This document shows, one piece after another, positions 41,453-64,000 of a stretch of 64,000 bases of DNA. Origin of the DNA: a bacterium (lineage in GTDB: Bacteria; Patescibacteriota; Patescibacteriia; JACQRZ01); the NCBI GenBank assembly GCA_030688365.1, contig JAUYIE010000018.1:33973-97972 (forward strand), read 5' to 3'. The position numbers were made by a program, and so were the translations under genes. Numbering within the stretch: the first letter of the stretch is position 1; every line of letters begins with the position of its first letter. A model generated the notes under the pieces. The model did not search any database. It saw nothing but the letters and a program-made list of their open reading frames with translations, and had not been told where the DNA came from.

Positions 41453-42382
41453 TTAATAAATAGTATACAATGCCTGTGCGGTACTCCATGGAAAATGAAA
41501 TCTGCGAGATGACGAAGTATTGACGTTTATCGTGTCACCGTCAGTGGTAAAAACAATATCACCGTCTTGATCAGTACGAAATGACTGAATGTCGTGACGG
41601 TCAAGTCGATTCAAAAGACGAGTGCTTGGGTGGCCAAACATATTATGAAATCCGGCGGAAATTGCCGCCACATTTGGGTGTACTACGTCAAGAAACGTAT
41701 CGCTGGTAGAATACTCGCTTCCATGATGTCCAACTTTTAACACATCGGCAGAAACATCTTCCTTTGCGTCAAGGAGGGCTTTTTCTTCCGTATCAGTCGC
41801 ATCCCCTGTCAAAAGAAAGGATTTCTGTTTGTAGACAAGTTTAGCAACAATTGAAGATTCATTCAAGTCCGACATGGACATATCGTGCAAATTGACCATT
41901 GGCGCAAAAATAGACATATGTATATCAGACCCCATATCCACCTGTGTACCGCGCCAGACTTCTTGTACATCCACTCCTTTTTCTACCGCTTGTGCTAACA
42001 AATCTTGATAATCAGGACTTTTTTGTACAATGCCGGTAATATACATATGATGAACCTTGTAACGATTCAAGACTTCATGCAACCCCCCGTAATGATCCAG
42101 ATGGGGATGAGTCAATATAACCAACTCAATATCATGATCATAAAACGGCATATACTCACTCAATTTTGCCAAAATACTTCTATCGGGTCCCGCATCAATC
42201 AATATTTGTTGACCAGCCGGCCCATCAACTAAAATAGCATCGCCCTGACCGACATCAAGGACCGCGACCGTTAGTTGCGTGCTGTCTTTTGCCTGTCCGA
42301 CGAAGTATACGCCCAACAGCACAGCACACATCACCAGCACAATACTAGCGATGTGTATGATACGTGTATGCACGACAAGCAT
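41453..42382 (-). CDS. ComEC/Rec2-related metallo-beta-lactamase-fold protein (stand-alone MBL domain with N-terminal TM helix)
   Basis: VAVLDVGQGDAILVDGPAGQQILIDAGP...LTHPHLDHYGG is the ComEC C-terminal MBL signature. 309 aa. Confidence 0.7.
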   Translation of the reverse strand: MLVVHTRIIHIASIVLVMCAVLLGVYFVGQAKDSTQLTVAVLDVGQGDAILVDGPAGQQILIDAGPDRSILAKLSEYMPFYDHDIELVILTHPHLDHYGGLHEVLNRYKVHHMYITGIVQKSPDYQDLLAQAVEKGVDVQEVWRGTQVDMGSDIHMSIFAPMVNLHDMSMSDLNESSIVAKLVYKQKSFLLTGDATDTEEKALLDAKEDVSADVLKVGHHGSEYSTSDTFLDVVHPNVAAISAGFHNMFGHPSTRLLNRLDRHDIQSFRTDQDGDIVFTTDGDTINVNTSSSRRFHFPWSTAQALYTIY

Positions 42383-42402
42383 GGTATCTTGTTTGTTCTG
42401 TC

Positions 42403-43716
42403 TTACAATCCGGCGATTCTAAACGTAAACTTTCCATTCTTTGTTGCTATTTGTGTTAACGTACCCACAACATCAAATCGTATCGTGTTATCAGGTGCAC
42501 CCAATAATACCACAGTGATTATGCCACCATCCGCAGTTTTTCCTTGCGCCGCCATACTGTATCCCGCCTCTTGTGTATATCCTGTTTTTCCTGCTAATAC
42601 TTCTCCTACTTTTTCTAACAATGCATTGCTATTTTTTGTAGACGCGACTTCTTTAAACTTCAATGTCTTAAATACATATCGTTTTGTTTCTGCTGCCGCC
42701 AAAACAGATGCATGACTATATGCTGTTTGTGTGAGAATCGCGAGATCTTTGGCAGTAGACTTATTACCTTCATCTAGTCCGGTCGGTTCTACAAATACTG
42801 AATCTTTCATTCCCAATTCCTGTGCTTTTTCATTCATTTTTTGTGCAAATACTTCAGACGAAAACCCCGTAGATCGCGCAAGCATCTTTGCCGCATTATT
42901 TTTAGAACCCACCAGTGCGCCGTAAAATGCATCTTTGACGGTTATCTGCTCTCCAATTTTAAAATAAAACTTCGCCGGAATCGTGTCATCTGATTTTTGA
43001 AACGTTATGACGGTATCCCAGCCAGGATTGTGATCCAAAAACACCAGCACCGTCATCAGTTTGGTAATACTGGCAATCGGCAATTGATTACTGCTATTTT
43101 TTGACAACAACACATTGTTATCTTGGTCAGTTATATACACGGCTTTTGCGGGAATAGCCCACAAATCAACACCATTATTAGACACCCACGGTCGTTTTTC
43201 TATCACCGCAATCTGTGAATATGGCAAAGTGGTCTGTGCAATCACATGATGATCTTTGTGTGTAGATGGAAAAGGTCGCCATGTCTGCTTATTACGATCA
43301 TAAAATGCAAGATACGCATTAGGATCAGTCCCGCCATACAGTACAGATAGCGTCATATTCTTTTCAATGTCTCCCTGCCCTTGCGTCCCAAAATCATACA
43401 TATATACTGCACTTCCAAATGTAAAACCTGGTGCAGGCGGCAAAAAGGTCAATGCCTCATACGCAGTCATCACACGACTAAACTTGAGAGATGATACCGT
43501 TGACATTGTTTTACTTTCTACTTGGAGCGAAAGATATTCACCATCATAATGATATGTAGTGTCTTGTACTCGCATGGTGGCGTCTATATTCACATAATCA
43601 TCAGGAACAGTAGTTGGCATCACGCCAGTATCGCCAGAAACATTACCTGCAGGCAAGATGCCAAACGTAACAGACAGGCACAACAGACTGATAGTGAGTG
43701 AGAACATTTTTTTCAT
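42403..43716 (-). CDS. D-alanyl-D-alanine carboxypeptidase (peptidase S11, PBP5-like) with about 200-aa N-terminal extra domain
   Basis: SxxK (PIASITK), SxN (GSKNNAA), KTG (GKTGYT). Signal peptide MKKMFSLTISLLCLSVTFG starting at the internal Met. The track ORF starts upstream at 43776. Confidence 0.75.
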   Translation of the reverse strand: MKKMFSLTISLLCLSVTFGILPAGNVSGDTGVMPTTVPDDYVNIDATMRVQDTTYHYDGEYLSLQVESKTMSTVSSLKFSRVMTAYEALTFLPPAPGFTFGSAVYMYDFGTQGQGDIEKNMTLSVLYGGTDPNAYLAFYDRNKQTWRPFPSTHKDHHVIAQTTLPYSQIAVIEKRPWVSNNGVDLWAIPAKAVYITDQDNNVLLSKNSSNQLPIASITKLMTVLVFLDHNPGWDTVITFQKSDDTIPAKFYFKIGEQITVKDAFYGALVGSKNNAAKMLARSTGFSSEVFAQKMNEKAQELGMKDSVFVEPTGLDEGNKSTAKDLAILTQTAYSHASVLAAAETKRYVFKTLKFKEVASTKNSNALLEKVGEVLAGKTGYTQEAGYSMAAQGKTADGGIITVVLLGAPDNTIRFDVVGTLTQIATKNGKFTFRIAGL

Positions 43717-43776
43717 ATAGTTTTTAGTGTATGGAGTATATCTACAAATGACAAGACGGTTCAAAGAATGGCGCAC

Positions 43777-45336
43777 CTAGGGTAGTGCAATCGCCTTGAT
43801 TTGAGATTCTGTTGAAACAGACGGTTGTGTATGAATACGGTGATATGACCATACAATGAAAAATAATAGACCATAACTGAACACAAAAAATACCCACGAC
43901 CATGATTGGAGTGTGATGGAAACAGAGGCGTAGGGAATACGAGAAAGATAGTCGGTTATCTTAAGAATATACTCAAGTACCAGCCATGTACCCCATGCGA
44001 CAGGTGTAACTATTATCTGCCAAAAAGGTGCAAATGGACCTAAAAGTGTCCCTGCCATATTCATCACCACCAATATAAATCCGATTACCATAGAAAAAGG
44101 TATAAACGGCAAGACCAGTATGTTTGCCAATAGTGATATCAACGACAACGATGAAAACTGTACAACAATCAGCGGTATAGTCGCCAATGTGGCGGCAAGT
44201 GTTTGGGTGCTGATTTCTTTCGCCCATTTCCATATGGGCAGTTTATCTATGAAATGAGAAAGTATCGGCGTACCATACAAAAGTCCCATGGTAGCCAAAA
44301 ATGACAGTTGAAATCCGGCATCATGAAATAATACAGAGGGAGACAACGCGACCATTACTACACCAGCGATTAACAAGGTATGAGCGACATTTTGCGTTCT
44401 GCCTTTATGTTGCGCGATAAGTACGAGTCCCCCCATCAATGCCGCGCGTATCGTAGAACTGGATGCGCCAGTAAACAACGTAAAAAGCGTTACACCTGCC
44501 AAAATCGCCCATGTCGCTCGCTTTCTGCCTATACGAACGGCACGAAAGAGTGATGCGATTGCCACCATAACCACTGTGATGTTGTATCCGGATATTGCCA
44601 CAATGTGTGTTAATCCGACAATTGAAAAACTGCTTGCGACATTTTTTGGAAATGCACTGCGCGCCCCAAATAATATTCCCGAGAGAAGCGTACTATGAGG
44701 TTCGGGAAGTAACGTATTGATCCCAGATACCATCCATTTTTTAAAACTATACAGCCCTGTCAATACAAAAGAAGAATGCTCACCGGAAATTGCCATGATA
44801 GAAGTCGGTTTACGACACCACGAAAAAATCCCTTGTCGTGCCAAATAGTCTTTGTATGAAAAACCTTCTGCCACAAACGGCTCTTCCAATTCACACCCAA
44901 AGGTCACATGATCACCATATCCAAACCATGGATATGATGGCGCGTCTATCAAAATCAACCCATTGTATGTGGCATTTCCAACGTTGTAGTCGGTAATGTT
45001 GACTGTTAGTTTTTGTTTTGTCTCCCGCACATCCGGTTCTTTGACAATCACGCCTTCCCACTGATGAACACTCTGTGCGTTAAACACGCTCACATTATAA
45101 TCGCCGGCTATGGGGATAGCACTGATACTTCGTAAAAGGCCAATACTAAAAAATAAGATACAACATCCAAGTATACGTATGCGCTGGTGATGACGCCACG
45201 AGATCATAACTATACCGATCCAGACTACCACAATCGCCCATACCCACGATACGCGTATCCATTCATACAGCGCAATACCCACAAGAAAAGAAAGCGCGCA
45301 CCAACGAGTGATGCGCGATAATGGCCAAATAATCAT
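43777..45336 (-). CDS. comEC: DNA internalization competence protein ComEC/Rec2, membrane channel portion (DUF4131 + competence domain)
   Basis: Polytopic membrane protein with the GLTHIVAISGYNITVV motif, compared with ComEC LSHLLAVSGLHV. 519 aa. The MBL domain is encoded separately at 41453..42382. Confidence 0.75.
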   Translation of the reverse strand: MIIWPLSRITRWCALSFLVGIALYEWIRVSWVWAIVVVWIGIVMISWRHHQRIRILGCCILFFSIGLLRSISAIPIAGDYNVSVFNAQSVHQWEGVIVKEPDVRETKQKLTVNITDYNVGNATYNGLILIDAPSYPWFGYGDHVTFGCELEEPFVAEGFSYKDYLARQGIFSWCRKPTSIMAISGEHSSFVLTGLYSFKKWMVSGINTLLPEPHSTLLSGILFGARSAFPKNVASSFSIVGLTHIVAISGYNITVVMVAIASLFRAVRIGRKRATWAILAGVTLFTLFTGASSSTIRAALMGGLVLIAQHKGRTQNVAHTLLIAGVVMVALSPSVLFHDAGFQLSFLATMGLLYGTPILSHFIDKLPIWKWAKEISTQTLAATLATIPLIVVQFSSLSLISLLANILVLPFIPFSMVIGFILVVMNMAGTLLGPFAPFWQIIVTPVAWGTWLVLEYILKITDYLSRIPYASVSITLQSWSWVFFVFSYGLLFFIVWSYHRIHTQPSVSTESQIKAIALP

Positions 45337-45348
45337 GAAACATGGTCG

Positions 45349-46404
45349 TCAATACGAACCATGCAACCAATGGCGGCATCGCTGATGAGGAGATAATGTT
45401 GTATATAATACAGTATTGTCATGAGCGTTTTGTATACGTACGGGATCGGTATTCCACTCAAAAATACGACGTACACCTTCTTCAAGCGCCACCTGAGGTT
45501 CCCACCCGAGCACGTCTTTGGTCACACAATAATCAATAGAACTATGTGCAACATCTCCCTTTTTTACTGCGCGATACATTGGTTCTTGGTGGTTACCAGA
45601 GACACGCACAATCACATTGAATAATTCATTGATAGAAGTGCGAATACCCGTACTTACATTATACACACCATTCACGTTCGTGTTGAGCGCACGCATACAT
45701 GAATCAACACAATCAGCCACATACACAAAATCTCGTGTATAGCTTCCATCACCGTTGATAATAGATTCTTGCTTATTTAAAAAGTTTTGCACAAAGATAG
45801 AAATCACTCCGCACTCGCGACTGGTTTCTTGTCGCGGACCATACACGTTTGCAAACCGCAACGCCACATAATCAATACCATACGCATCATTTGAATATTC
45901 CAAATGGCGCTCAAACACCACCTTACTATGACCGTATGGCGACACTGGCGCCTGCGTATAATTGTGAGGAAACTTCTCAACACCCGGCGGGAGCTCTCCA
46001 TAGATAGCTCCCCCCGATGACGCAAAAATTATTTTTTTCACTCCACCGTATATACAATTTTTTAAAAGATTTACCCCACCAATGATATTAATATCAATAT
46101 CGTGAATAGGATCCAGTACTGATAATCGCAAGTCAATTTGTCCCGCAAAATGAAACACATAGTCCGGTTTTTCAAGATCAAACACGCGATGTAATTCATG
46201 ATCACGAATATCCATTTGATAAAATCGTGAACCATGTTCTTCTTTTAAGACGACAGGATTGATATATGAAGGACGCCCCGCATAGAGGTTATCGAGCACA
46301 ATCACCGGATATCCTTGTTCTATAAGGTGATCTACAAGATGTGAGCCAATAAACCCCGCACCACCGGTCACTAAAATCTTTGGTTTTGCTGTTGTCTCTT
46401 CCAT
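45349..46404 (-). CDS. NAD-dependent epimerase/dehydratase (UDP-glucose 4-epimerase-like)
   Basis: Rossmann motif ILVTGGAGFIGSHL and catalytic YGHSK (YxxxK). Start is at the internal Met MEETTAK. Confidence 0.75.
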   Translation of the reverse strand: MEETTAKPKILVTGGAGFIGSHLVDHLIEQGYPVIVLDNLYAGRPSYINPVVLKEEHGSRFYQMDIRDHELHRVFDLEKPDYVFHFAGQIDLRLSVLDPIHDIDINIIGGVNLLKNCIYGGVKKIIFASSGGAIYGELPPGVEKFPHNYTQAPVSPYGHSKVVFERHLEYSNDAYGIDYVALRFANVYGPRQETSRECGVISIFVQNFLNKQESIINGDGSYTRDFVYVADCVDSCMRALNTNVNGVYNVSTGIRTSINELFNVIVRVSGNHQEPMYRAVKKGDVAHSSIDYCVTKDVLGWEPQVALEEGVRRIFEWNTDPVRIQNAHDNTVLYTTLSPHQRCRHWLHGSY

Positions 46405-46461
46405 GCGATTACGAGAGTAACAAATTATACGTCTACCCATGTTTATACGACCGATTATCTT

Positions 46462-47532
46462 CTACTGCTTCCTACGCCATTTTATATACTCCTCAATAAA
46501 AGGCAAGAGCGATCCGTCCAGAACATCCTGTATTTGATCAGTTTCATAGTTGGTACGATGATCTTTCACCATTTTATAGGGATTCAACACATAGGAGCGT
46601 ATTTGATTTCCCCATGCCGCCTCATGATATTCGCCACGGAGCTGTTGCCGTTCTTCTTCTTTTTGAGTGAGGGATAGTTGATGTAGTTTTGCCTTCAAAT
46701 ATCGCATAGCCGTCTCTTTGTTCTGTAATTGAGACCGCTCATTTTGACACGTTACTACAATACCGGTCGGGATGTGAGTAATACGCACTGCCGAATCTGT
46801 CGTGTTGACTCCCTGTCCCCCCTTACCACCAGCGCGGTACGTATCAATACGCATATCATCCGTCGCGATATGTATTTCATGTTGCGTCCCTACATCAGGA
46901 ATCACTTCAACAAGTGCAAAAGAAGTCTGTCGTAATTTTTCTCCATCAAAAGGAGAAATGCGTACGAGACGATGCACCCCGGCTTCTGCTTGTAAATAGC
47001 CATACGCATACGGCCCCACCACCTCCAACGTAGCACTCTTGATGCCCGCTTCACCGCCCTGTTGCTTATCAAGGATGCGCACCGTCCATTTTTGTTGTTC
47101 GCAAAAACGCAGATACATACGCAACAGCATATCCGCCCAATCCATCGCGTCTACTCCGCCGGTTCCTGCATGAATCGCGATCATCGCATTATTATGATCA
47201 TACTCACCGGAAAAAAGCGCTTGAAACTCATGCTCTTCAAACTCCGTACGAAGTGTTTCAAACTGTTGTTGTATTTGATCACTGTTTTCTTGCCCGTAGG
47301 TACGCGCCATTTCCAAAAGTGCCTGACAGTCATCTTCCATACGATCCCATAGTGTTACCACCTCCTTGTCATATGCGAGTTCCTGTCCTAACGTACGTGC
47401 GTGATGTGAATCATTCCAAAAATTTTCTTTGGTCATCTCCTGCTCAATCGTGGCAATACGTTTCTTGCGTACCTCAATGTCAAAGTAACCCCCTACACTC
47501 TTGAATACGCCGTGTAAGCGCATTAAGATCAT
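46462..47532 (-). CDS. prfB: peptide chain release factor 2 (no programmed frameshift)
   Basis: SPF tripeptide (VRISPFDG) and GGQ motif (GGKGGQGVNTTDSAVRITH). Single continuous 356-aa ORF, only 27 nt after the htrA stop. Confidence 0.9.
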   Translation of the reverse strand: MILMRLHGVFKSVGGYFDIEVRKKRIATIEQEMTKENFWNDSHHARTLGQELAYDKEVVTLWDRMEDDCQALLEMARTYGQENSDQIQQQFETLRTEFEEHEFQALFSGEYDHNNAMIAIHAGTGGVDAMDWADMLLRMYLRFCEQQKWTVRILDKQQGGEAGIKSATLEVVGPYAYGYLQAEAGVHRLVRISPFDGEKLRQTSFALVEVIPDVGTQHEIHIATDDMRIDTYRAGGKGGQGVNTTDSAVRITHIPTGIVVTCQNERSQLQNKETAMRYLKAKLHQLSLTQKEEERQQLRGEYHEAAWGNQIRSYVLNPYKMVKDHRTNYETDQIQDVLDGSLLPFIEEYIKWRRKQ

Positions 47533-47559: not shown

Positions 47560-48864
47560 TTATTTTACCAATGAATCATCAAACTCTCCCAAAGTAACCT
47601 TGATATCTTTCTCTTTTCCTCTTGAAAAAACCTTAAGCGTGACTTCAGTGTTTGGCTCATAGAGTGACAATACATGAGCAAGCGCATTTTCATCATTTAT
47701 TTTCTTTCCATCCACCTCTAAAATAATATCATCTTCAGCCAACCCCGCCTTTTCTGCCGGACTGCCAGATACCACACCACGTTCTTTCTTAGTCGGATCC
47801 CCCACGATTACTGCACCATAGCTGTTAGGAAGATTATTTTTCTTCACATATTCCTCATCAACCATCTGGTATCGCACACCTAGCCAAGGACGGACTATTT
47901 TGCCATGCGCACGGACACTCTCCAGGTCTCTCTTCATGATACTAGAAGGAATCGCAAATCCTACTGACTGACCGGAACGTGATACTGCCGTATTCATCCC
48001 GACAACCTTACCTGCGAGATTGAGTAACGGCCCGCCGGAGTTTCCATGGTTGATCGCCGCATCAGTTTGTATCGCTTCATAGATCGTACCCACTTCCCCG
48101 TTGTTGCCACTTGCTTGTACGACGCGATTTATACCTGAAACAACACCTCGCGTCACCGTATTACGAAACTCACCCAATGTGTTGCCGATTGCAATCACTG
48201 TTTGCCCTATCTCCACAGCATCTTCATCAGCAAACTCCAGTGGCACTACATCAGTCGCCTCTATTTTTATCACCGCAACATCGTTCAAAGAGTCGGTAGC
48301 CAGTATCTTCGCGGGATATTCAGTACCATCGTTGGTTACCACTACGTAATCGGCACTCGTATCTGACACCACATGATGATTGGTCAAAATCATCCCATCA
48401 GCTGAAATAATAAATCCTGAACCTTCTCCAATTGTTTGTTTCTCAATTGGTGTATCTTCTTGCGGTGCGGGATTGCGTGGTTCTGTAGGTAACGGTATTT
48501 GAAAAAAATTACCAAATGGACTGGAAAAAAATGGATTGTTTGCCGATGGTGCTGTAACTTCTTTTTTTACCAAAATACTTACCACTGACGGTGACGCCTG
48601 TTTGACCACATCAATGGTCGCCGAATCTTCTTGTACCATACGTGTCTCTTGCGTAACATTTTGTACTAGTCCATTGGGTGTCTCAATGCCAAAATAGGAA
48701 GCAATGCTCCCTCCTTGAGTAAAGCCGACAATACCACCGACTAATCCACCAAAAAAACCAAACCCCAAAGAAATGACCGCAAGAAAAATCATGGTAATAA
48801 TGATTGACTTCCTTGGATATTTGTACACGGTCAACTGTTGTGACTCATCCATATATTTATTCAT
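47560..48864 (-). CDS. HtrA/DegP-family serine protease with PDZ domain and N-terminal TM anchor
   Basis: Catalytic-triad contexts TNHHVV, D...VAVIKI, GNSGGPLLN. C-terminal PDZ-like region. 434 aa. Confidence 0.85.
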   Translation of the reverse strand: MNKYMDESQQLTVYKYPRKSIIITMIFLAVISLGFGFFGGLVGGIVGFTQGGSIASYFGIETPNGLVQNVTQETRMVQEDSATIDVVKQASPSVVSILVKKEVTAPSANNPFFSSPFGNFFQIPLPTEPRNPAPQEDTPIEKQTIGEGSGFIISADGMILTNHHVVSDTSADYVVVTNDGTEYPAKILATDSLNDVAVIKIEATDVVPLEFADEDAVEIGQTVIAIGNTLGEFRNTVTRGVVSGINRVVQASGNNGEVGTIYEAIQTDAAINHGNSGGPLLNLAGKVVGMNTAVSRSGQSVGFAIPSSIMKRDLESVRAHGKIVRPWLGVRYQMVDEEYVKKNNLPNSYGAVIVGDPTKKERGVVSGSPAEKAGLAEDDIILEVDGKKINDENALAHVLSLYEPNTEVTLKVFSRGKEKDIKVTLGEFDDSLVK

Positions 48865-48871: not shown

Positions 48872-49903
48872 TTATCGGCGGGCAATATGTTTAACCCCGC
48901 GTAGTGTTTTCATAAAATCAATTGTTTTTTTCAATCCCTCATCAAGCAATACCACAGGAAACCACCCGGTTTCTTCCTTCACCTTATAGATATTGCCAAT
49001 ATCATTATGTAATTCCCATGCTTTTTGTACAGGGTCGTTCACTGCTTCGTCTGCAAGCCATTCTATTTTTGAAGTTGATTTGGTCAATGCAATAATTTTT
49101 TCTGCCAACTCCTTATAGGTATACACGGCAGTGTGGTTAATGTTGTAAATACCGGAATTTTCAGATGCCATGACTTTTTCAAGACCATTCACTACATCAG
49201 AGATAAAACAAAATGCTCCTTTTTCTAACGCACGCGGGATTTGTAATGGTTTGTTTGCCAACGCACTGGCGATCAAGTGCGGGACGATCCGTCCATCATC
49301 AAGATACATACCCGGTCCATAAACAGTACCTACTCGCGCAATTGCGTATGACAATGAATAATTTTTGGCATACGCCACTACCATTGCTTCAGCAGTACGT
49401 TTTGCGTATGCATAATAATTCAGCGGGTCAAGGTGATTTAACACTCCGACATAATCTTCTGATGGTGTGTATCCTTCTTGCGGAAGCATGCCATACACAC
49501 GTAGATCAGATAAAAATAACACTTTGGCACGGTATTGTGTAGCAACATCCAAGACATTTTTTGTTCCAGCAATACCGGTATTGAGGGTTTCAATCGGATG
49601 GTGGACATACCACTGTGGCGAATCTGTCAACGCACAATGATATATTTCATGGATTCCCTCATAAATGGCCTTTGCTCGTTTTGTACCTGCCATAGTCTTG
49701 AGATCAAACGGTGTCGTGATATCATGGCGTACCATAGTAAAGCCGGGACGCGCCAGTAGATGATCAATGTTTTCTTCATGTCCTGTTACATAATCATCAA
49801 TACAAATCACATGACGGTTGTGATCCAATAGATATTCACACAGATGAGCGCCGATAAATCCAGCACCACCAACAACTAACGCATTTTGAAAATCTTGAGG
49901 CAT
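48872..49903 (-). CDS. NAD-dependent epimerase/dehydratase (UDP-glucuronate decarboxylase/dTDP-glucose dehydratase-like)
   Basis: LVVGGAGFIGAHLCEYLL Rossmann motif and YAYAK (YxxxK). 343 aa. Confidence 0.75.
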   Translation of the reverse strand: MPQDFQNALVVGGAGFIGAHLCEYLLDHNRHVICIDDYVTGHEENIDHLLARPGFTMVRHDITTPFDLKTMAGTKRAKAIYEGIHEIYHCALTDSPQWYVHHPIETLNTGIAGTKNVLDVATQYRAKVLFLSDLRVYGMLPQEGYTPSEDYVGVLNHLDPLNYYAYAKRTAEAMVVAYAKNYSLSYAIARVGTVYGPGMYLDDGRIVPHLIASALANKPLQIPRALEKGAFCFISDVVNGLEKVMASENSGIYNINHTAVYTYKELAEKIIALTKSTSKIEWLADEAVNDPVQKAWELHNDIGNIYKVKEETGWFPVVLLDEGLKKTIDFMKTLRGVKHIARR

Positions 49904-52907: not shown

Positions 52908-54035
52908 CTATCTTTTGGCTCCTGAATACGCGATCGCACGCACTACATCCCATTCACGGGCAGTCGTGGCGATTTTGCCATACACTGCTCTAAATGTTTT
53001 AAGTGCGGCCGCTTCGCTGTCAAGATTACGATGCACTGATCGCAGACCATATCCCATGACCGTCACTGCTGCGCTGTCATTAGGATTTTTCATGTCTGCT
53101 GCGCGTTTGTAAACCAACTTAAAGTTGATTTTTGCGCGATCTTCGGCTGCTTTGCTTGTTTGAGAAGGAAAGCGACCGTTTGCGATCTTGAGTGCGTCTG
53201 ACCATCCACTTTCCGTTGTAGGAAAGGAGCCAAATGCTGCCAAGTAGCTATTGAGTACACCGGCGCGCTCTCCTGCCCCCAACTTAAGGGTAGTAGGCGT
53301 ACCGTATGTAATGAACGCTACCATTTCTTGCTTATTACTTGTATCCACTGTTTGACCTTTTGAAATAGTAGCAAACAATGTTGTCTCCGTCTTTTGCTCT
53401 GCTGATAGACTTGATTTGGCGTTGACTGAAGCGGCGAGTTCTGCCGGAGTAGATGAGATCGTCGCTGATTCAGCTTTTATCGCTTCAATCTGTGCTGTAC
53501 GTGCGTCTTCTACGGAAGTAGTAGGTGCAGGCGTAGCAACAGTCGTCGTATCAGTTGTTGTTGTGTCTGTCGTTGTGTCGGTTGTAGTGTCTGTTGTTGT
53601 GTCAGTCGTAGGAGCAGACGTTGAAGTACCACCACCACCACCGCCAACTACACCGCCACTTGCTGCGGGTGTACTCGCTACAGTACATTCCGTTGCGGTT
53701 GGCGTAAATACAACACTCGTAAGTGGTCCAGTCAACGTTACAGAATTTTGTGATGATGTACATGTCTGCGTGTATGCGCCACCGTTTGTCAAAAGATATC
53801 TATCTGCAGACACAACAGTGAATGTACTTCCACTAGGAACTGTAACGGTAAAGGTTGTCGCGCCGACATCAAGTTGTGTAGCAACAGACCCCGTAGAGAT
53901 CGTTAACGTAATATCATTCACTGACATGTAAGTGTCTGTACTGTATGTGAGATCCGCTGCTGATGCCAACTGTCCTACTCCTGCGCTTGCAAGCACGAAG
54001 ACACCAACCACCAGAGAAACTATTTTTTTCTTCAT
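52908..54035 (-). CDS. secreted protein (375 aa): signal peptide, about 100-aa beta-rich N-domain, (TDTTT)n linker, and a C-terminal domain paralogous to that of the 2353-aa giant protein
   Basis: Signal peptide MKKKIVSLVVGVFVLASAGVGQLASA. Linker TDTTTDTTTDTTTDTTTTDTTT. The C-terminus aligns to the giant-protein C-terminus at about 50% identity (TYGTPTT.LGAGERAGV.NS..AAFG...NGR.P...NPND.AA..VMGYGLRS..RNL.SEAAA.K.FRA.Y.K....EWDVVRAIAYSGA.R). Confidence 0.65.
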   Translation of the reverse strand: MKKKIVSLVVGVFVLASAGVGQLASAADLTYSTDTYMSVNDITLTISTGSVATQLDVGATTFTVTVPSGSTFTVVSADRYLLTNGGAYTQTCTSSQNSVTLTGPLTSVVFTPTATECTVASTPAASGGVVGGGGGGTSTSAPTTDTTTDTTTDTTTDTTTTDTTTVATPAPTTSVEDARTAQIEAIKAESATISSTPAELAASVNAKSSLSAEQKTETTLFATISKGQTVDTSNKQEMVAFITYGTPTTLKLGAGERAGVLNSYLAAFGSFPTTESGWSDALKIANGRFPSQTSKAAEDRAKINFKLVYKRAADMKNPNDSAAVTVMGYGLRSVHRNLDSEAAALKTFRAVYGKIATTAREWDVVRAIAYSGAKR

Positions 54036-56675: not shown

Positions 56676-56825
56676 AGCTTGTAAGCTTATTAATATTAAA
56701 AATCAAAACACAAAATAATTTTTGCCTTCGTAAGTAAGCAGCTGTCAAACAGTATAGCACTTTTTCTCATGAACTCACCTGTTGATAACATTATTTATCA
56801 TTTTTCTGCAAAAAAAATATAAATG

Positions 56826-57470
56826 CTATGGTAAAGCACTTATATCCACTTCATCACCAAGTTGTATGCCGTTCCTTTGGATAAACCCAGCCGGTACTTC
56901 CAAAATATAGTTTATTGGCACGTTTGGCTCAAAAGTATCAGGCACACTTTGAGAAGAAATCTCTGCTTTCATATCCACCACAAGACGACTATCATTTATC
57001 CAGATAAGATCCACATCAAAGATCATACCTTCCGCACTATAACTATATCGGCTGGGATTGCTTAACACATACAACATACCATGCCCCCGCGGTGGTGCAT
57101 CTCGGCCAACCAGCCCTTTTTCCTGTTTTGCACGCGTATCAGCTACTTCAACAGTCATGGGGATATCAGCAATAGTAATCGGTATTTCTTTAAAATCATC
57201 AGGACTGTCTGTACTTGATACATCAAGAGAATCACCAGCACCGTCTGGTGTCAAGCTATATGGCGTTGTAATAATACCTTCCCCGCTAGAGAGAGGTATC
57301 TCACCTGAAACTGCCGATTCAGAAATATCTGCCGTTATTAGATCATCGGTGTTTTTCATAGTAGTCGGTACAGAGGATGTGGCTGTCCTACCAAAAATCA
57401 ACCACCCTGCAACCGCAACCAAAAGCACTATAACAATAGCTATTCCTATGTAAAACGTCTTTGCTGTCAT
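56826..57470 (-). CDS. membrane-anchored DUF192 (COG1430) family protein
   Basis: N-terminal TM FYIGIAIVIVLLVAVAGWLIF. C-terminal region ...GMLYVL...GMIFDVDLIWIN...YILEVPAGFIQRNGIQLGDEV matches the DUF192 pattern. ATG at 57468-57470 (the track start is a GTG). Confidence 0.55.
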   Translation of the reverse strand: MTAKTFYIGIAIVIVLLVAVAGWLIFGRTATSSVPTTMKNTDDLITADISESAVSGEIPLSSGEGIITTPYSLTPDGAGDSLDVSSTDSPDDFKEIPITIADIPMTVEVADTRAKQEKGLVGRDAPPRGHGMLYVLSNPSRYSYSAEGMIFDVDLIWINDSRLVVDMKAEISSQSVPDTFEPNVPINYILEVPAGFIQRNGIQLGDEVDISALP

Positions 57471-57479
57471 ATTACCCAC

Positions 57480-57854
57480 TTATTTTCCCGCTTTTTTCAG
57501 AGCATCTGCTGCAGGACTGGTATCATCAAGCGTTCCATAAAACATCACATTTGATTCATTGATATAGAGATCTTGTGGTGCCCAGACCGCTTCTGATAAC
57601 GGTACGAGTTGGAAAGTATCTTTTTCACCTTCTGCGCCAGCGGTCACGGACAAGAAATAGCCATTTGTCATCTTCAACCGAGGAAATGTCGTAAGTTTAC
57701 CCACATAAATCTGTCCTGTCTGCAGATATACCAATGAATATCCATCCCCTTCTTTGTTCCACATCTTCTTATACCCAAAATAACCAAGGATAAGCAATAC
57801 GATGATGATCACTACAGTCACTGTAGTCTTTGACCCAAGAGATTTCATTTTCAT
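57480..57854 (-). CDS. small membrane-anchored hypothetical protein
   Basis: From the internal ATG: MKMKSLGSKTTVTVVIIIVLLILGYFGYKK... The longer track start at 57959 would overlap the strong terminator of the upstream gene. Confidence 0.4.
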   Translation of the reverse strand: MKMKSLGSKTTVTVVIIIVLLILGYFGYKKMWNKEGDGYSLVYLQTGQIYVGKLTTFPRLKMTNGYFLSVTAGAEGEKDTFQLVPLSEAVWAPQDLYINESNVMFYGTLDDTSPAADALKKAGK

Positions 57855-57955
57855 AGAAACAATGCCGTTAAGTATGAATAAAAATAAGTATATACAGTAT
57901 ACCAACCACAAGATCAGTGTCAACAAAAAATAACTGCGCGTGTTACTACATATCC

Positions 57956-57993
57956 ACAAAAAAAGACCCTCGCCATAATGACGAGGGTCTTTT
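57956..57993 (-). terminator. strong Rho-independent (bidirectional-type) terminator after the 1361-aa surface protein gene
   Basis: 10-bp GC-rich stem AAGACCCTCG (57963-72) / CGAGGGTCTT (57982-91), loop CCATAATGA. An A7 run lies upstream on plus, giving U7 after the stem on the minus transcript. Confidence 0.7.
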
Positions 57994-58049
57994 GCGCGTA
58001 GTCATGATGTCTTTATCACATCATAAGCGCGAATACGTTATTTCGAGGA

Positions 58050-61000
58050 TTAGTAGCTAAGCGTACCACCAAGGACAGGCATGTTTCTGGTATTTGTAAT
58101 AACACCATAGTTTACCTGGTCGTCCCAGTTGATATCAGCAACACCGGCGATATCAGCACGAAGTGTTTCGTCTGATGTCGCACCTGTGGTGTCACCTTTG
58201 ACGACAAACTTCATGGTCGTACCAGCAGCGATGCTTTGGCCAATAGTACCAGTGTATGCGATTGCCGCACTGTTCTGGTTGTTGGTTATAGCATTAGCTG
58301 CGGTAGCGCTCAAGTAGTTGAAGCCAATCGTCGCGTTGTTACTCAACTGACAAGCAGTGGTCGTAAGTTGAGTTGCGTTGGCGATTGCAGTAACCACACA
58401 GCCGGAATCACGGGTGACAGCAGTACCAGTAGAGTCATATCCCATGACATCTACCGTATCGCCGATAGCAAATCCACTAGTGCTTGCGACAGTGACAGTT
58501 GTGACAGTGTCAGCCAAGTCCGCGGTAAGCAAGCTTTGCGCACCGAAATACAGTTTACCAACACCTGGTTGAGCTGGTGCGTAGGTGACACCGACATCTA
58601 TACCAGCATAGCCGGAAATCGTACCGACAACAGTGATAGTAATGACAGTCGCTGATACCGCGGTCACAATACCGCGCAACGTGGTTGTTACAGACGTATC
58701 ATTGACTAACACGGTCGCACCGACGGGAATACCATCCCAGTCACCGGAAGTACCGGTAACAGCGAGAGATTGACCGTCTACCGCCGCGGAAACACTCACG
58801 AGATCCTGTACAGACGTTTCTGTAGCAAGAGGATTGATAGTGTCAGTACTCTTATAGAGATTAGCATTTCCTGTACCTGTCGTGTCAACAGAACCGGAAA
58901 TAGTAAGAGCAGCGTTGTTTAAGATCGCAGCATATCCACTGTTTGCAACCGCATCAAACTCTAAGATACTTGCACCAGCTCCAGCAACAGCTGTACCTGA
59001 AGGTGACGAAGATGCCTTATCAACAACAACAAGAGTTCTGTAGATCACCTGTGCAGTACCGGTTGCAGAAGTCACAGTTTCATCAATACCTTGACCTGAC
59101 TGTGCGCCACGAGTCGTGACGTTTGCGTTAGACGCGATATTGAGAGTATGTGAGCCACCGGAAACAGCTGAACCAAAGGATCCGACAGAACCCTTAAGGG
59201 TCAAAACTTTTGTCGTATTCTTTGGAATCACCCAGTTTGATGCCAATGTAAACGTTGCCGTTCCATCGGATTGCGCACTCAATGACGCAACAGTGCCAAG
59301 CAATGTTGAACCATCATACAACTTCAAGTTGGAGAGAGAACCTCCATAAGATGTTGTATCAGTGATTACGATTGATGAAACATTAGCATCTTCTGGTGAA
59401 CCAGCGGTAAAGTCAAAGATAGCTAATGTTTGATCGGTGTTACCCATGACGAGTTGACCTGCAACAGGAGTGGAAGCATTGGCAGTAATAGTCAATGTTC
59501 CAGTAGAAGCGATCACCAATGTCTGCAATGAGACAGCGGTCAATGCGGTTGTCGCGTCAGTACTTGTATTTGATCCAGTCGCTGTAGCGCTGACAAACTC
59601 AAGTCCGACTTCAGCAGTCGCATATCCATCAGCACCAGTCAAAATGTCTGCGTATGCATCAATCACATATTGTCCGCCTGCAGGGATATTCACTGTAGGT
59701 GAGAGACTAAATGTGAAGTCAGCATCAGCAGCACTTGACAAAGTACCTTGGACAGGAGCGAGTGCCACACCCTCATGCATCAGTACAAGATTCTGAAAGT
59801 TGCCCCCAAAATTTGAAGTCGCATCAGCGTCTTCATCTCCGAGTACAACCTGTGTGAGATTGACTGATTCACCTGAACCGGCAGTAAGAACAAGAGAACC
59901 GACCTTAATATTCGTCGCACCAACCACACCAGTAGGAGTAATTAATGACGAGTCAGCTACTGAAGTATTCTTTGCTCTACTCAATGCACCTGTCTGTGCG
60001 GTCAATGTGAGACCCGTTGCAGCTGAAGTAGCGACATTGGTCAAAGATGTCTGACCCGTCGCGTCTGTTGAACCCGCAACAAGACTGACAGTGATAGTAT
60101 CGTTCGCTGCGAGAGCTGTTCCTGTATTGGTGGTTGTATCAGCACGATACTCAAATACACCGGTAGTACCAGCAGGGATAACAACAGTGTTACCCAACGA
60201 ATATACTTCAGTTGTTACATCTGCGACAACAGTATCAGTAGTACCTACCTGTGAACCGTTGTAGTACAACTTACCATTATCTAGTTCGTCTGTAGCATCA
60301 AGATCAATCACTGAATTCACACTCACCCTGACATACGTAACCTTGATGTCCTCACCATTTGCTTTGTAATCAAAGCGGGCGAGTGCTTGGTCCGTCATAC
60401 CAGCAGCAATGTTGCCTGAAGGTGCGTCGGCTGAACGTGAAACAGTTAATGTACCGTTATTGATGTTGGTACCATCACCTGATGGATCTGGATCAGCAAC
60501 AGTAAAGGCCGCTCCTGCCAATGCTGGGGTTGTATCTACACCGTAGTTGGTGTCAGTTGATACAAAGTCAGCAGTTGAACGAATGGTGAACTTGAATGCA
60601 CGACCAGTACCTTTTGAAACAATACCCATCAAAACAAATACTTTGTTTTGTCCGGATGCGATTTCATAAGGAGTAGCAGACAAATCAAACGTAACTTTAT
60701 TGTCTGAACCAATCTGTGCCGTTGATCCTACCTGTGCTCCACCGACAGTCAACATCAAGTCTTGGATAGCATCAGTGGAGATCGTTCCCACCATTGTGAG
60801 GACAATCTTCTTGATTTGCATCTTCTGACTGTTTGCGACAGTAGTGAATCTCCACAATTCTTGTGAGTTTGCGCTTGGATCAATCGTTGCGGGGAAGGTA
60901 GTTGGAGCGGGGGTAATGTTGATATACCCAAGATCAGTGATAGCAGCGATGCTAAAACTGTTACCAGACATAGGATAACTTCCTGCGACGGTACCACCTG

Positions 61001-62135
61001 GCATCATGGTGATGTCAGAAGCAGCATTTACAGAAAAGTTAATTGTCTTGGTTCCTGAAAGAGCGGCAGCAATGTTTACACCCACCCAGATGGTCTTTGA
61101 ACCACCTGCAGGGATAGAGAACAAACCAGCTGCATTGTTGAAGGTAAAGACCTTACTGGAAGATCCTGACACTTCTGCAAGTTTGGTTGAACCCTCATAG
61201 AGGTAAAGATTGTTCACATCTGCGTCAACAGACACGCCACCTCGGGTTAATTTCAAGGTATTGATTGTCTGTGCCGCTGAAGTGCCGTTTGCAAAATTGA
61301 GCTTCAAAATAGGAGCAGCGTTTTGCATTACCAATGCGTCATCAGACAAAAGTGTGCCTGATGCCGGTGTGTCAGATGCTACGGATACAGTCAATGCGCC
61401 GGTAACGGGGACAGGAGTCGTTCCATTGCTCATAAATGTTGCAATGGAGCTTTCCATACCAGTGATACTGGTACCTACTGCCAACGTGTTGAAAACTGTG
61501 TCAGAGACAGTCTGAATGAATTCAGAGCGGAAGTTATTTGCGGTGAACGCATTGAAGTCCGCGATTTTTCGCTTTGTTGTACCATCAGCATAATAAATAT
61601 CTGATGATGATGCTGTCTTGATGAGACTTCCTGCAGACGGGGTTGAAGTAATAATACTGTCACCCGACGTGTAGTTGGTGAAGAATGCATCGTTGACGTC
61701 ATCAATCTGTTGATTCCAATTTGATCCATAAAGATCCATGGCGATTTGCTCGTTGGATACCCAACGAAGCTTGCCGCCTGGTTCTACTGCGTATACTTTT
61801 GGATCAGTGGTAATTTTCACGAGACGGGTACCTGCTCGATATACGACGTTACCGCCGATCGAGAGTGCTTGCAATTCCGCATCAGTGATTGTTTTCACTT
61901 GTGAGAAATCAGCAAACCAGGTCTTAAATGTTTTTTCATTAGGAAAAACATAACGCTTACCATCAGAACCATAGTAGTATACGGCTGCGCCTGAGGCCTT
62001 GATGAGGTCACCTGCTGCCAATGTTGTAGCCGCACTTACGGGTACAATGGAAGCAAACCCCATAGACCACAACACAGTGGTTGCCATTACAGCTGTGGTA
62101 AGAGCTTGTTTACCTGCTTTTAATACTTTTGACAT
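58050..62135 (-). CDS. giant secreted surface protein (1361 aa): signal peptide, about 150-aa N-terminal globular domain, long Thr/Ser/Ala/Gly/Val-rich beta-rich region
   Basis: Start at ATG 62133-62135, preceded by GAAAGGAAAG 8 nt upstream; the track's 62171 start has no spacing to its SD. Signal peptide MSKVLKAGKQALTTAVMATTVLWSMGFASIVPVSA. Remainder is low-complexity but non-identical repeats, ending ...GGTLSY. Confidence 0.8.
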   Translation of the reverse strand: MSKVLKAGKQALTTAVMATTVLWSMGFASIVPVSAATTLAAGDLIKASGAAVYYYGSDGKRYVFPNEKTFKTWFADFSQVKTITDAELQALSIGGNVVYRAGTRLVKITTDPKVYAVEPGGKLRWVSNEQIAMDLYGSNWNQQIDDVNDAFFTNYTSGDSIITSTPSAGSLIKTASSSDIYYADGTTKRKIADFNAFTANNFRSEFIQTVSDTVFNTLAVGTSITGMESSIATFMSNGTTPVPVTGALTVSVASDTPASGTLLSDDALVMQNAAPILKLNFANGTSAAQTINTLKLTRGGVSVDADVNNLYLYEGSTKLAEVSGSSSKVFTFNNAAGLFSIPAGGSKTIWVGVNIAAALSGTKTINFSVNAASDITMMPGGTVAGSYPMSGNSFSIAAITDLGYINITPAPTTFPATIDPSANSQELWRFTTVANSQKMQIKKIVLTMVGTISTDAIQDLMLTVGGAQVGSTAQIGSDNKVTFDLSATPYEIASGQNKVFVLMGIVSKGTGRAFKFTIRSTADFVSTDTNYGVDTTPALAGAAFTVADPDPSGDGTNINNGTLTVSRSADAPSGNIAAGMTDQALARFDYKANGEDIKVTYVRVSVNSVIDLDATDELDNGKLYYNGSQVGTTDTVVADVTTEVYSLGNTVVIPAGTTGVFEYRADTTTNTGTALAANDTITVSLVAGSTDATGQTSLTNVATSAATGLTLTAQTGALSRAKNTSVADSSLITPTGVVGATNIKVGSLVLTAGSGESVNLTQVVLGDEDADATSNFGGNFQNLVLMHEGVALAPVQGTLSSAADADFTFSLSPTVNIPAGGQYVIDAYADILTGADGYATAEVGLEFVSATATGSNTSTDATTALTAVSLQTLVIASTGTLTITANASTPVAGQLVMGNTDQTLAIFDFTAGSPEDANVSSIVITDTTSYGGSLSNLKLYDGSTLLGTVASLSAQSDGTATFTLASNWVIPKNTTKVLTLKGSVGSFGSAVSGGSHTLNIASNANVTTRGAQSGQGIDETVTSATGTAQVIYRTLVVVDKASSSPSGTAVAGAGASILEFDAVANSGYAAILNNAALTISGSVDTTGTGNANLYKSTDTINPLATETSVQDLVSVSAAVDGQSLAVTGTSGDWDGIPVGATVLVNDTSVTTTLRGIVTAVSATVITITVVGTISGYAGIDVGVTYAPAQPGVGKLYFGAQSLLTADLADTVTTVTVASTSGFAIGDTVDVMGYDSTGTAVTRDSGCVVTAIANATQLTTTACQLSNNATIGFNYLSATAANAITNNQNSAAIAYTGTIGQSIAAGTTMKFVVKGDTTGATSDETLRADIAGVADINWDDQVNYGVITNTRNMPVLGGTLSY

Positions 62136-62300
62136 AAAGTCTTTCCTTTCGTAGTTATTATTAGTGACCATCTCCAGCGAACCTTTGCGATTCCTTTGAG
62201 GAAAAGCGGTCTCGACCTTTACTGAAGCGGACTAGATACGGCTTTTAAAAAAGTTGCCCTTTTTAAGTTTCGTGCCTAGATTTTAAACAAAGGGGAGTTT

Positions 62301-63482
62301 TTATTTTGGCTCTTCTGTTGAATTATTATTATTTTGGTTATTTTCATCAAGAATTTCTGTTTTTTGTTCTGTTTGGTTGTCTGACGTATTTTCCTCATCT
62401 ACGTGCGTATCATCTGATGTTTCTGGTGGATCCGTATCTGTTGAATCGTCTATCCTCACCAGCGCATCCGCGCTATCTTCTGCATCTATCACGAGTTGGT
62501 AGGATTCATCCAATTTCATTAACGCCATTTTTAAATCATTTTTTTCAAGGGATTTTTTTGCTGTTTCTAGTTTGTCTGTTGCTTCTTTGGAGTCCTGGGT
62601 CGCTTTGGCGACTTGTTTTACATCAGCTGTTTTTGTATCTATAGCGATTTTTACCGTTTCATTGAGAATAGCGACTTTTTCTTCCGCTTTTTTAATACGC
62701 TGTTCTATGTTGCTTTTGACATCCGCGGAAGGGGAATCAATCTTAGCAGTCTTTTCTATGGCAACCGCAAGCGCTTTACTGGTAGTACTATTTGCCTGCG
62801 CAATCGCTTCTTTGACTTTAGGAGCGGTGTTTTTCTTTACTTCCACTGACAGAGTGCTCTTTGTCTTGGTCAACGCTTCTTCCGCGCGTACCGCCTTTTG
62901 ACTGATGGTATTTGCCACCGTAGCAACGCGTATCGGCTCTTGCGTACTCTTGATATCTTCAAGATGCTGACCGGCGCTACTAAGAGTAAACGTTACATCA
63001 CTTACCAAAGCATCTACTTTAGATGCTTTTTCTTCATCACTAATCGGTTGTTTTGATATGGCATCCAGTTCTACAAGTCGCTGTTCTACCAACTTCATTT
63101 GGAGTTCCGCCTTTTGATCAGCGGGAGCTAATGCTACTTGGATGTTTTCACTCGTCTTTTTTACACTATATAATGCGTCACCGGGCAAACTGTCCCTACT
63201 TCCCATCGCCGCCACTGATCCACCAAATAACAATGCGAGAAGTGCAAATGCGATAGCTGAAGGATGAGCAAGTACTGAACCGAAGGTATATCGGTACGCT
63301 CCGCTTGCAATAGTTTTCATATATACCTGTACACCAGCAACAACGCCAGGCCGTGACGTCCCCATGCCTTGAGACGCCATCTGTGACAACAAAAGTTCTT
63401 TACAAGAAGATTGCCATTGCGTACGTGGCGTAATCCGTTGTAGTGTTTGGAGTTGTTTTACGATTTTTCCGTTCATAGTCAT
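62301..63482 (-). CDS. putative anti-sigma factor: short cytoplasmic N-terminus, one TM helix, extracytoplasmic K/E/A-rich coiled-coil domain and acidic tail
   Basis: Immediately downstream (63 nt) of an ECF sigma gene and co-oriented. TM segment AIAFALLALLFGGSVAA at about residue 70-90. Start at ATG 63480-63482 (the track start 63500 is a GTG). Assignment is by context and topology only. Confidence 0.5.
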   Translation of the reverse strand: MTMNGKIVKQLQTLQRITPRTQWQSSCKELLLSQMASQGMGTSRPGVVAGVQVYMKTIASGAYRYTFGSVLAHPSAIAFALLALLFGGSVAAMGSRDSLPGDALYSVKKTSENIQVALAPADQKAELQMKLVEQRLVELDAISKQPISDEEKASKVDALVSDVTFTLSSAGQHLEDIKSTQEPIRVATVANTISQKAVRAEEALTKTKSTLSVEVKKNTAPKVKEAIAQANSTTSKALAVAIEKTAKIDSPSADVKSNIEQRIKKAEEKVAILNETVKIAIDTKTADVKQVAKATQDSKEATDKLETAKKSLEKNDLKMALMKLDESYQLVIDAEDSADALVRIDDSTDTDPPETSDDTHVDEENTSDNQTEQKTEILDENNQNNNNSTEEPK

Positions 63483-63545
63483 TATAAAAAATACCCGCAC
63501 GTATCTATAGTCAACACCATATCGTTTGCTTGTGGGTATTTGTTT

Positions 63546-64000
63546 TTATTTTTGTTTGAGTTTTCCTTTGAGCGCTTTGATACCCCTATGGAGCATCACA
63601 CGTACGGCGCCAGGCGATCTATCTACTATTTTTGCTATTTCTTTGAGAGTGAGATCGTTGAGGTAAAAAAGCGTAATGATTTCGCGATACGTATCTTTGA
63701 GTTCGCGAAGCGCTTTCTCTACCACGACCATGTCTGTTTTTAATGTCATTTTTTCTTCAAGCGTGAGATCTACCCTATCGGCGACGACGATGTCATTATC
63801 TTCCAACGATTCGGCGACCACCGTACCTCTTTTTCGGTAAAAATCTACCACTACATTTCGTGCTATCTTATAGATTACTGCCTGCAGATTTCCGATCACT
63901 CGCGCGTCCTTGATGTACTGCCATGTTTTTAAAAATGTTTCAGCAGTAAGATCTTCCGCATCGTGCGCGGAGGGTACTTTGAGGTAAATGAAGCGATAGA
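63546..64000 (-). CDS. ECF-type sigma-70 family RNA polymerase sigma factor (partial; N-terminus beyond window end)
   Basis: Upstream of the track ORF, region 2 continues in frame (...FIYLKVPSAHDAEDLTAETFLKTWQYIKDARVIGNLQAVIYKIARNVVVDFYRKR). Region 4 HTH LTLKEIAKIVDRSPGAVRVMLHRGIKALK. The track ORF start at 63899 is an internal GTG. Confidence 0.75.
   Translation of the reverse strand, partial: YRFIYLKVPSAHDAEDLTAETFLKTWQYIKDARVIGNLQAVIYKIARNVVVDFYRKRGTVVAESLEDNDIVVADRVDLTLEEKMTLKTDMVVVEKALRELKDTYREIITLFYLNDLTLKEIAKIVDRSPGAVRVMLHRGIKALKGKLKQK

Follow-up and report, generated by a model that had tools for sequence, protein, structure and literature searches.

The DNA described here is a 64,000-nucleotide stretch of a Patescibacteria genome (contig JAUYIE010000018.1; in the following, the window), which holds at one end a 22-kb block of genes running from an extracytoplasmic function (ECF)-type sigma factor gene to ndk, the nucleoside diphosphate kinase gene. 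Gene identities were obtained by Pfam and NCBIfam profile searches of the window open reading frames (ORFs), and all window features given below lie on the minus strand unless stated otherwise. A preliminary description of this DNA had listed the genes of the block, and all of them were found, on that strand and in the order given. The final gene of the conserved array, ndk (40870-41433), lies just outside the start of its range of 41453-63900. The common orientation, presented there as a trait of the block, belongs to the whole window: the minus strand carries 59 of its 63 non-overlapping ORFs, the median gap being 19.5 nt, and the ORF listing gives an unbroken minus-strand run from 33.5 kb to the window end.

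In the direction of transcription, the block begins with the 3' part of the sigma factor gene (63546-64000; Sigma70_r4_2, E 6.5e-15), which is incomplete; its frame is open to the window end and the gene runs off beyond 63998. It is followed by the gene of a single-pass membrane protein with a DUF5667 domain, a putative anti-sigma factor by position (62301-63500; PF18915), and by the gene of a giant secreted protein without a Pfam match (58050-62135), in which a signal peptide is visible. The called ORF of the giant protein covers 58050-62171 (1373 amino acids, aa), and its likeliest start is the conserved one at 62135, giving 1361 aa. Next come a small transmembrane (TM) protein (57480-57854; 124 aa from the likely start, no Pfam match), a DUF192 protein with an N-terminal TM segment (56826-57479; PF02643, E 1.5e-20), a secreted repeat protein rich in Gly (25%), Ala (24%) and Thr (16%) (54069-56675; no Pfam match), a secreted 375-aa protein with an N-terminal domain, a Thr/Asp linker and a 202-aa all-alpha C-terminal domain (52908-54035; no Pfam match), and a membrane-anchored protein matching tetratricopeptide repeat (TPR) families (52071-52775).

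The second half of the block starts with a fusion of an S8 subtilase and an FG-GAP beta-propeller, secreted or anchored (49916-51967; PF00082, PF13517, PF01839), and an extended short-chain dehydrogenase/reductase (SDR) that resembles UDP-glucuronate decarboxylase and is called UXS-like here (48872-49903; best solved homologue human UXS1, E 7.6e-53). These are followed by an HtrA/DegP-type serine protease that has a PDZ domain and, at its N-terminus, a TM segment (47560-48864), prfB for peptide chain release factor 2 (46462-47532; TIGR00020, 472 bits with a cut-off of 370), a GalE-like NAD-dependent epimerase of the SDR type assigned by Pfam/NCBIfam (45349-46440), the ComEC channel part with DUF4131 and Competence domains (43777-45336), an S11 D-Ala-D-Ala carboxypeptidase/endopeptidase extended N-terminally by about 200 aa (42403-43776), a membrane-anchored metallo-beta-lactamase (MBL)-fold protein that corresponds to the C-terminal third of ComEC/Rec2 (41453-42382; TIGR00361 positions 418-663), and ndk, assigned by Pfam. 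By inspection, 12 of the 17 block products have a signal peptide or TM segment, in agreement with the mostly envelope-related content described before, and prfB and ndk are indeed present as embedded housekeeping genes. No functional tie of prfB, ndk or ComEC to the surface genes was found.

Transcription units were derived from sequence signals, by inspecting the spacers for terminators and promoter-like sites. Short spacers, previously ascribed to the entire block, are found in the nine genes from the S8/FG-GAP protease to ndk (0-27 nt), but elsewhere six gaps of 90-150 nt hold terminators or promoter-like sites. Two strong intrinsic terminators lie inside the block, which a single operon would not contain. 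The first follows the giant gene (57958-57993; AAAAGACCCTCG-loop-CGAGGGTCTTTTTTT) and is the best terminator-like match in the window of the RNA model R2 introduced below; the second follows the 375-aa gene (52840-52887; a 19-bp stem, then TTTTTT). A near-consensus promoter-like site (57896-57923; TTGACA, 16 nt, TG-n-TATACT; 11 of 12 positions, with an extended -10) lies upstream of the ATG of the small TM protein at 57854 and within its called ORF. The called TTG start of this ORF (57959) lies upstream of the terminator/promoter pair, and ATG 57854 is the likeliest start. Further promoter-like sequences precede the TPR gene (52829-52801) and the S8/FG-GAP gene (52001-51974), an extended -10 is found ahead of the repeat-protein gene, and an AT-rich terminator-like hairpin with a T-run follows ndk (40803-40833). 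Because of the internal terminators and the promoter-like sites that follow them, the block is probably not one unit, and the signals predict about five or six transcription units. The genes from S8/FG-GAP to ndk are operon-like, with one strand, short spacers and an order kept in relatives, and are probably transcribed together into one long mRNA for both envelope and housekeeping functions.

For the synteny comparison, which the preliminary description had set beforehand as its test, relatives were contigs that encode homologues of the S8/FG-GAP protease (loci are numbered with the prefix L), and the order was counted as full or as the portion covered by each contig. The order (sigma, DUF5667, giant, ...), TPR, S8/FG-GAP, SDR, HtrA, prfB, ComEC, S11, MBL, ndk was kept in at least six independent relatives, with protease identities of 73% (L082), 49% (L083/84), 47% (L085/86), 51% (L090, a short contig), 47% (L091) and 45% (L092, Candidatus Uhrbacteria). 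The TPR gene precedes S8/FG-GAP in L082, L083, L085, L090, L091 and L092; the order from S8/FG-GAP to ndk is the same in L082, L085 and L091 and is shortened in L083 and L092. Beyond ndk, synteny is lost in every comparison: a gene for a 2353-aa protein follows in the window, an opposite-strand gene in L082, an alanine racemase gene in L083, and genes for a transglutaminase, DegT and FemAB in L085 and L091. Since these genes differ between lineages, the array ends at a synteny breakpoint, and since the order is kept while the flanks differ, the independent scattering of these genes that would have spoken against the preliminary description was not what we found. Inside the array some genes come and go. 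At its position, DUF192 is present in the window only (absent in L082, L085 and L092), the GalE-like SDR is found in the window and L082 only (absent there in L083, L085 and L091), the MBL gene is missing in L083, and L092 lacks ComEC between prfB and S11.

At larger distances the block falls apart into modules. A metagenome scan anchored on the giant-protein family yielded 80 loci. This family has more than 1596 homologues of about 1200 aa, all unnamed and from Patescibacteria. A sigma gene lies just upstream of the giant gene on the same strand in 24 of the 36 distinct loci with at least 2.5 kb of upstream sequence, and a DUF5667 gene follows the sigma gene in L085, L090, L107, L112, L118, L120, L124 and others. 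The sigma orthologues in L085 and L090 are 184-186 aa long and contain only regions r2 and r4. Among the 30 loci with at least 7 kb downstream, a TPR gene follows the giant gene in 10 and S8/FG-GAP in five, and all five belong to the window's clade. The series giant, TPR, small TM protein, ..., 375-aa-type protein recurs in several loci, with small TM homologues after giant or TPR genes in L093, L095, L108-110, L115 and L136. In the closest homologues of the giant protein (about 60% identity), the N-terminal domain of the window protein is replaced by PG_binding_1. The model of the window domain (pLDDT 88) showed weak local resemblance in the PDB solely to EccB repeat domains of type VII secretion, with a TM-score of about 0.2. 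The domain swap and this modelled resemblance hint at wall binding by the giant protein. A preprint reports predicted S-layer proteins in Patescibacteria; the text consulted does not specify their family.

Pairs of an ECF sigma factor and a membrane anti-sigma factor, such as SigW-RsiW and RpoE-RseA, control envelope genes. The cassette resembles them in its small sigma factor with r2 and r4, the co-directional single-pass membrane protein and the neighbouring secreted envelope protein. It differs in that the partner is a DUF5667 protein without a recognisable anti-sigma domain, no ECF-type promoter was found, and a structured RNA stands between the regulators and the target gene. The literature searched held nothing relevant on DUF5667 or S8/FG-GAP proteins in Patescibacteria.

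The S8/FG-GAP protease and its UXS-like neighbour form a second module. The protease has more than 2487 homologues, mostly in Patescibacteria (Uhrbacteria, Falkowbacteria, Parcubacteria), and carries the Asp-His-Ser triad of active S8 subtilases in its sequence: D74, H138 and S313 are invariant and N230 is nearly invariant among 21 sequences. The UXS-like gene directly follows it in 22 of 24 Patescibacteria loci, counting one in which an HD gene lies between the two. When protease identity is 45% or lower (L087-L089 and the true orthologues of a genome-collection scan), the UXS-like gene was the only conserved neighbour, and the frequent deep context of the pair is MreB, GT4, S8/FG-GAP, SDR. 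In that scan, made with the protease alignment, the patterns were generic S8 motifs, and of 80 loci most were unrelated subtilases and about 15 were usable. Proteins with S8 and FG-GAP domains outside Patescibacteria (Poribacteria, Verrucomicrobiota) have no UXS-like neighbour. No description of this fixed pairing was found in the literature searched.

Two epimerases had been reported in the block. The second is GalE-like, but the first is nearest to the UDP-glucuronate decarboxylase UXS1: among solved SDRs, UXS1 scored 183 bits over the full length and the others at most 78 bits, and the window protein has the GxxGxxG and YxxxK motifs. It scored below every NCBIfam equivalog cut-off, and the closest assignment is a putative UDP-glucuronate-decarboxylase-like enzyme. 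The proposal that the epimerases glycosylate Thr-rich linkers found no support, since the UXS-like gene tracks the S8/FG-GAP protease and not the giant or Thr-rich proteins. The best NCBIfam model for the S8 domain was mycosin (MycP) of type VII secretion, a weak match of 140 bits with a cut-off of 279. The block has no EccC, EccD or EccE genes, the likeness to type VII secretion is one of resemblance only, and the weak mycosin and EccB matches may be coincidence. Several contigs titled 'uncultured Gammaproteobacteria bacterium' (L002, L006, L008, L009, L010, L011, L012 and L017) carry the Patescibacteria-type pair, and some of them also carry giant-protein genes. These titles are probably mislabelled records of metagenome-assembled genomes.

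A third element is the conserved leader of the giant gene (62172-62285), located between the DUF5667 and giant genes. It starts with the element TAAAATCT (62285-62278), followed by a variable hairpin (62279-62232), the element AGTCCGC (62233-62227) and a bulged hairpin. The outer stem P1 of the latter pairs CTTCAGT with GCTGGAG (62227-62221 and 62178-62172) and encloses the bulge AAAGGTCGA (62220-62212) and an inner hairpin (62211-62179). The leader is kept among the window, L082, L090 and L092, in which the stem sequences differ yet pair, and a pattern drawn from these copies occurred once in the window with none expected. In the core of the family, a P1 stem of 5-9 bp, unconstrained in sequence, carries the 5' bulge NNAAAGGUCGR (conserved bulge AAAGGUCGA), and a P2 hairpin is stacked on the 3' arm of P1. 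MAFFT alignments of the motif (A4, A6) were left-justified and unusable for structure; a first model, R1, was built from four unaltered copies (alignment A7) and recovered copies outside this seed at E 6.5e-5, 1.3e-4 and 2e-3.

The fold of the family is supported by covariation. In an alignment of 17 sequences, 93.9% of the cells paired, compared with 57% after shuffling and 42-52% with slid partners, and double compensatory changes occurred in 13 of 14 pairs. The covariation score was 0.978 versus 0.279 and was reached by none of 500 shuffles, in an alignment that had been fitted to the model. RNAalifold predicted the same fold. A second model, R2, was run on giant and protease loci totalling 1.21 Mb and gave 17 matches that scored above 21 bits; one of these, on the minus strand of L135, is a terminator that lacks the bulge and follows the giant gene. 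All 20 mapped R2 matches, 16 of them above 21 bits, lie in the spacer before the giant ORF and on its strand. In 1.16 Mb of unrelated control loci only one weak match was found (E 0.75). The motif occurs in 17 of the 24 sigma-linked loci and in none of the 12 sigma-less loci. A loose descriptor, which matched 1551 of 4339 GGTCG sites, was uninformative, and a strict one matched 11 of the 33 sites upstream of giant genes versus 14 of 924 elsewhere. Copies were located at L119:377-419, L121:9476-9518, L134:9868-9910, L135:9880-9922, L107:9702-9747, L118:2418-2460, L124:9881-9925, L130:2085-2132 and L085:4877-4918, among others. Compensatory pairs together with a fixed strand and position mark the family as a structured cis-acting RNA. 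Rfam 15 gave no match at gathering score in the window, and at relaxed E-values only noise was obtained for the window leader and four typical leaders; in the literature searched, no description of this leader motif or of RNA motifs of Patescibacteria was found.

Alternatively, the hairpin might serve the anti-sigma gene as a variant intrinsic terminator, or act at the DNA level as a protein-binding site or promoter. The model consensus, with its A-rich 5' arm and U-rich 3' arm, would agree with this, as would the true bulge-less terminators also found by R2 and the strict tie of the motif to the presence of sigma. However, a U-rich 3' arm is seen in about half of the copies and is absent in L134, L135, L124, L085, L092 and the window, and inspection showed no U-tract behind the stem in roughly half of all copies. 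The bulge stays fixed, and the stems are free to covary. We consider these alternatives rather unlikely. The conserved 9-mer was also tried as a -35 box or ECF-type promoter and rejected: it lies anywhere between 16 and more than 40 nt away from the 3' arm, so that a promoter with fixed -35/-10 spacing is ruled out. Bulge-less terminators with an A-tract, hairpin and U-tract were seen right after the giant gene at L134:13707-13738 and L135:13703-13741. They look like the leader motif minus its 9-nt bulge, and the motif may have evolved from, or double as, a terminator-like hairpin.

Long structured 5' leaders stabilise the mRNA of S-layer and further highly expressed surface proteins, as in Lactobacillus slpA and, by STAB-SD, in Bacillus thuringiensis cryIIIA. 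The motif shares with them a hairpin leader ahead of the gene of a very large secreted protein, and its purine-rich AAAGG resembles the Shine-Dalgarno-like stabiliser. Unlike these leaders, it is a bulged hairpin with an invariant 9-nt bulge and free stems, and it matched no Rfam family. A sub-clade has a second leader element, GCGGGAT(T/A)(T)CCG..TGATTT, between the bulged hairpin and the giant start codon, 50-350 nt upstream of the latter. It was found in L100, L107, L112, L118, L119, L121, L122 and L151 (GGGATTCC) and in L114 and L117 (GGGATATCC), which makes about 10 occurrences in leaders with about 0.7 expected at the background rate; it is absent in the window.

Taken together, the region is likely a lineage-conserved collinear array of an Uhrbacteria-type Patescibacterium, in which separate units are juxtaposed, rather than one operon or machine. 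Unit 1 would be a widespread cassette composed of the ECF-type sigma factor, the DUF5667 protein, the leader with the AAAGGUCGA bulge and a secreted, wall-associated protein of about 1200-1400 aa with its own terminator, followed by accessory surface genes for the small TM, fast-evolving repeat, 375-aa and TPR proteins. Unit 2 would start with the Patescibacteria-wide pair of S8/FG-GAP protease and UXS-like enzyme, and in the window's clade it would continue without gaps through HtrA, prfB, (GalE-like), ComEC, S11, ComEC-MBL and ndk. Among the loci compared, the sigma-giant and S8/FG-GAP-UXS modules are adjacent only in the window's clade. Because they are found apart at greater distance, the 22-kb block is best seen as a clade-specific juxtaposition. 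A related idea is the uber-operon, reportedly due to Lathe, Snel and Bork in 2000 and said to describe conserved neighbourhoods of separate operons. As in uber-operons, several units of partly unrelated function hold their relative order across related genomes; unlike them, the order is confined to one Patescibacteria clade, and two sub-units are conserved deeper and independently.

The preliminary description had regarded the whole 22 kb as one consolidated locus for surface biogenesis and maintenance, with epimerases that might glycosylate Thr-rich linkers. Such a locus would be functionally integrated and possibly a single sigma regulon. It would be expected to show what was seen here: a full order shared by at least six relatives and broken at the ndk end, an envelope location of most products and tight packing on one strand. 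Yet two strong terminators and several promoter-like sites interrupt it, S8/FG-GAP is missing beside the giant cassette in 25 of 30 loci, and the protease pair is found elsewhere next to MreB-GT4. The UXS-like gene follows the protease rather than the giant gene, and prfB and ndk are universal housekeeping genes. A single consolidated locus is thus unlikely, and in small genomes such as these, with most genes in one direction, a conserved order should not be taken as the mark of one functional locus.

At the other extreme, the order could reflect phylogenetic inertia alone, with slow rearrangement of small genomes leaving adjacencies without functional meaning. The dense, co-directional genes of the whole window, the interspersed housekeeping genes and the gain or loss of DUF192, GalE-like, MBL and ComEC genes inside the block point in this direction. 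But the block persists while the flanks of the same relatives differ, and the S8/FG-GAP-UXS and sigma-giant adjacencies survive at 30-40% protein identity in unrelated neighbourhoods, so that inertia as the full explanation appears quite improbable. A horizontally acquired genomic island, suggested by a GC content that peaks locally at 55% (54-56 kb), was rejected as most improbable because the peak is due to the Gly/Ala codon content of the repeat-protein gene, tRNA or Rfam matches were not found, integrases or transposases were absent among the Pfam-scanned block products, and the order is vertically conserved in relatives.

Several observations weigh against an array of separate units with a sigma-controlled, leader-bearing cassette. 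With the full block conserved at 45-73% protein identity, functional coupling could be stronger than juxtaposition implies. The totals of the promoter and terminator scans were not above shuffled expectation, so only individually strong sites carry weight. Of the sigma/anti-sigma pair proposed earlier, the sigma factor holds, having r2 and r4 only, but its partner lacks a recognisable anti-sigma domain: no anti-sigma family matched the N-terminal 126 aa of the DUF5667 protein even at E up to 5, which leaves the function putative and without domain support. Inspection of the leaders for -35/-10 spacing revealed no ECF-type promoter upstream of the giant gene. Finally, the leader copy of the window scored 4.9 bits with R2 and was detected by neither R1 nor R2, and with a z-score of -0.92 its fold is not unusually stable. 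This copy has a longer inner hairpin than the family, and relatives score higher (L085 34 bits, L092 17 bits) or have compensatory changes (L082). Judged by its exact 9-nt bulge, P1 pairing, position and relatives, the window leader is a divergent variant of the bulged-hairpin motif.

If the array of separate units is accepted, the sigma/anti-sigma pair would sense the state of the envelope and drive expression of the giant gene. The leader hairpin could work post-transcriptionally, in processing, in stability or as a protein-binding site, and the abundant surface-protein mRNA would thereby be uncoupled from its regulators. Envelope substrates would be the targets of the protease and the sugar enzyme. 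A more far-reaching and speculative proposal, doubtful as it stands, is that the cassette encodes the major surface protein, wall-associated and of S-layer type, in Patescibacteria of the Parcubacteria/Uhrbacteria type, with a new class of cis-regulatory RNA, in which the AAAGGUCGA hairpin and a dedicated factor couple envelope sensing by the sigma/anti-sigma pair to a post-transcriptional control of how much surface protein is made, and that the S8/FG-GAP and UXS-like proteins form a second, undescribed module for envelope maturation. Much of bacterial diversity belongs to the Patescibacteria, and their cell surface, which mediates an attached, host-dependent lifestyle, is almost unknown at the gene level. 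The region offers three testable objects, namely a regulator-linked family of giant proteins with more than 1500 members, a protease/sugar-enzyme pair that is almost universal where the protease is found, and a new structured RNA. The block itself is an ordinary conserved neighbourhood, to which the undescribed leader RNA and the two modules add moderate value.

Among the accessory surface proteins, the 375-aa protein had been described as carrying an anchor domain. Its C-terminal domain (52908-53513) has more than 195 unnamed homologues in Patescibacteria and gave an AlphaFold2 model with a pLDDT of 96 and 10 helices. The domain matched no anchoring family in Pfam/NCBIfam (SLH, LysM, CWB, sortase signal), and a Foldseek search with the model gave no PDB match at E below 3; the anchor label is consequently a guess. 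Located at the C-terminus of many secreted proteins, the modelled, Patescibacteria-specific domain is a candidate new fold. Directly downstream of ndk, the window encodes the secreted 2353-aa protein (33557-40618), whose C-terminus is 53% identical to the C-terminal 202 aa of the 375-aa protein. This shared domain extends the surface theme beyond the boundary previously assigned to the block. The repeat protein contains degenerate tandem repeats of 63 and 129 nt, and its positional counterparts L082_876 and L092_746 share with it only the signal peptide and the motif ALTFxAxxVxSxGA. Plus-strand ORFs rich in Pro, Ala and Val (54787-56718) lie opposite this gene and are mirror artefacts of its GC-rich repeats.

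Two genes of the second unit deserve mention. A programmed +1 frameshift in prfB is common to many bacteria; the window prfB is one uninterrupted ORF that spans nearly the whole release factor 2 model, without sign of such a frameshift. The ComEC/Rec2 uptake channel has its DUF4131, Competence and MBL parts all in the block, split over a channel gene and an MBL gene with the S11 carboxypeptidase gene between them (41453-45336), and the same split order of ComEC, S11 and MBL genes is found in L082, L085 and L091.

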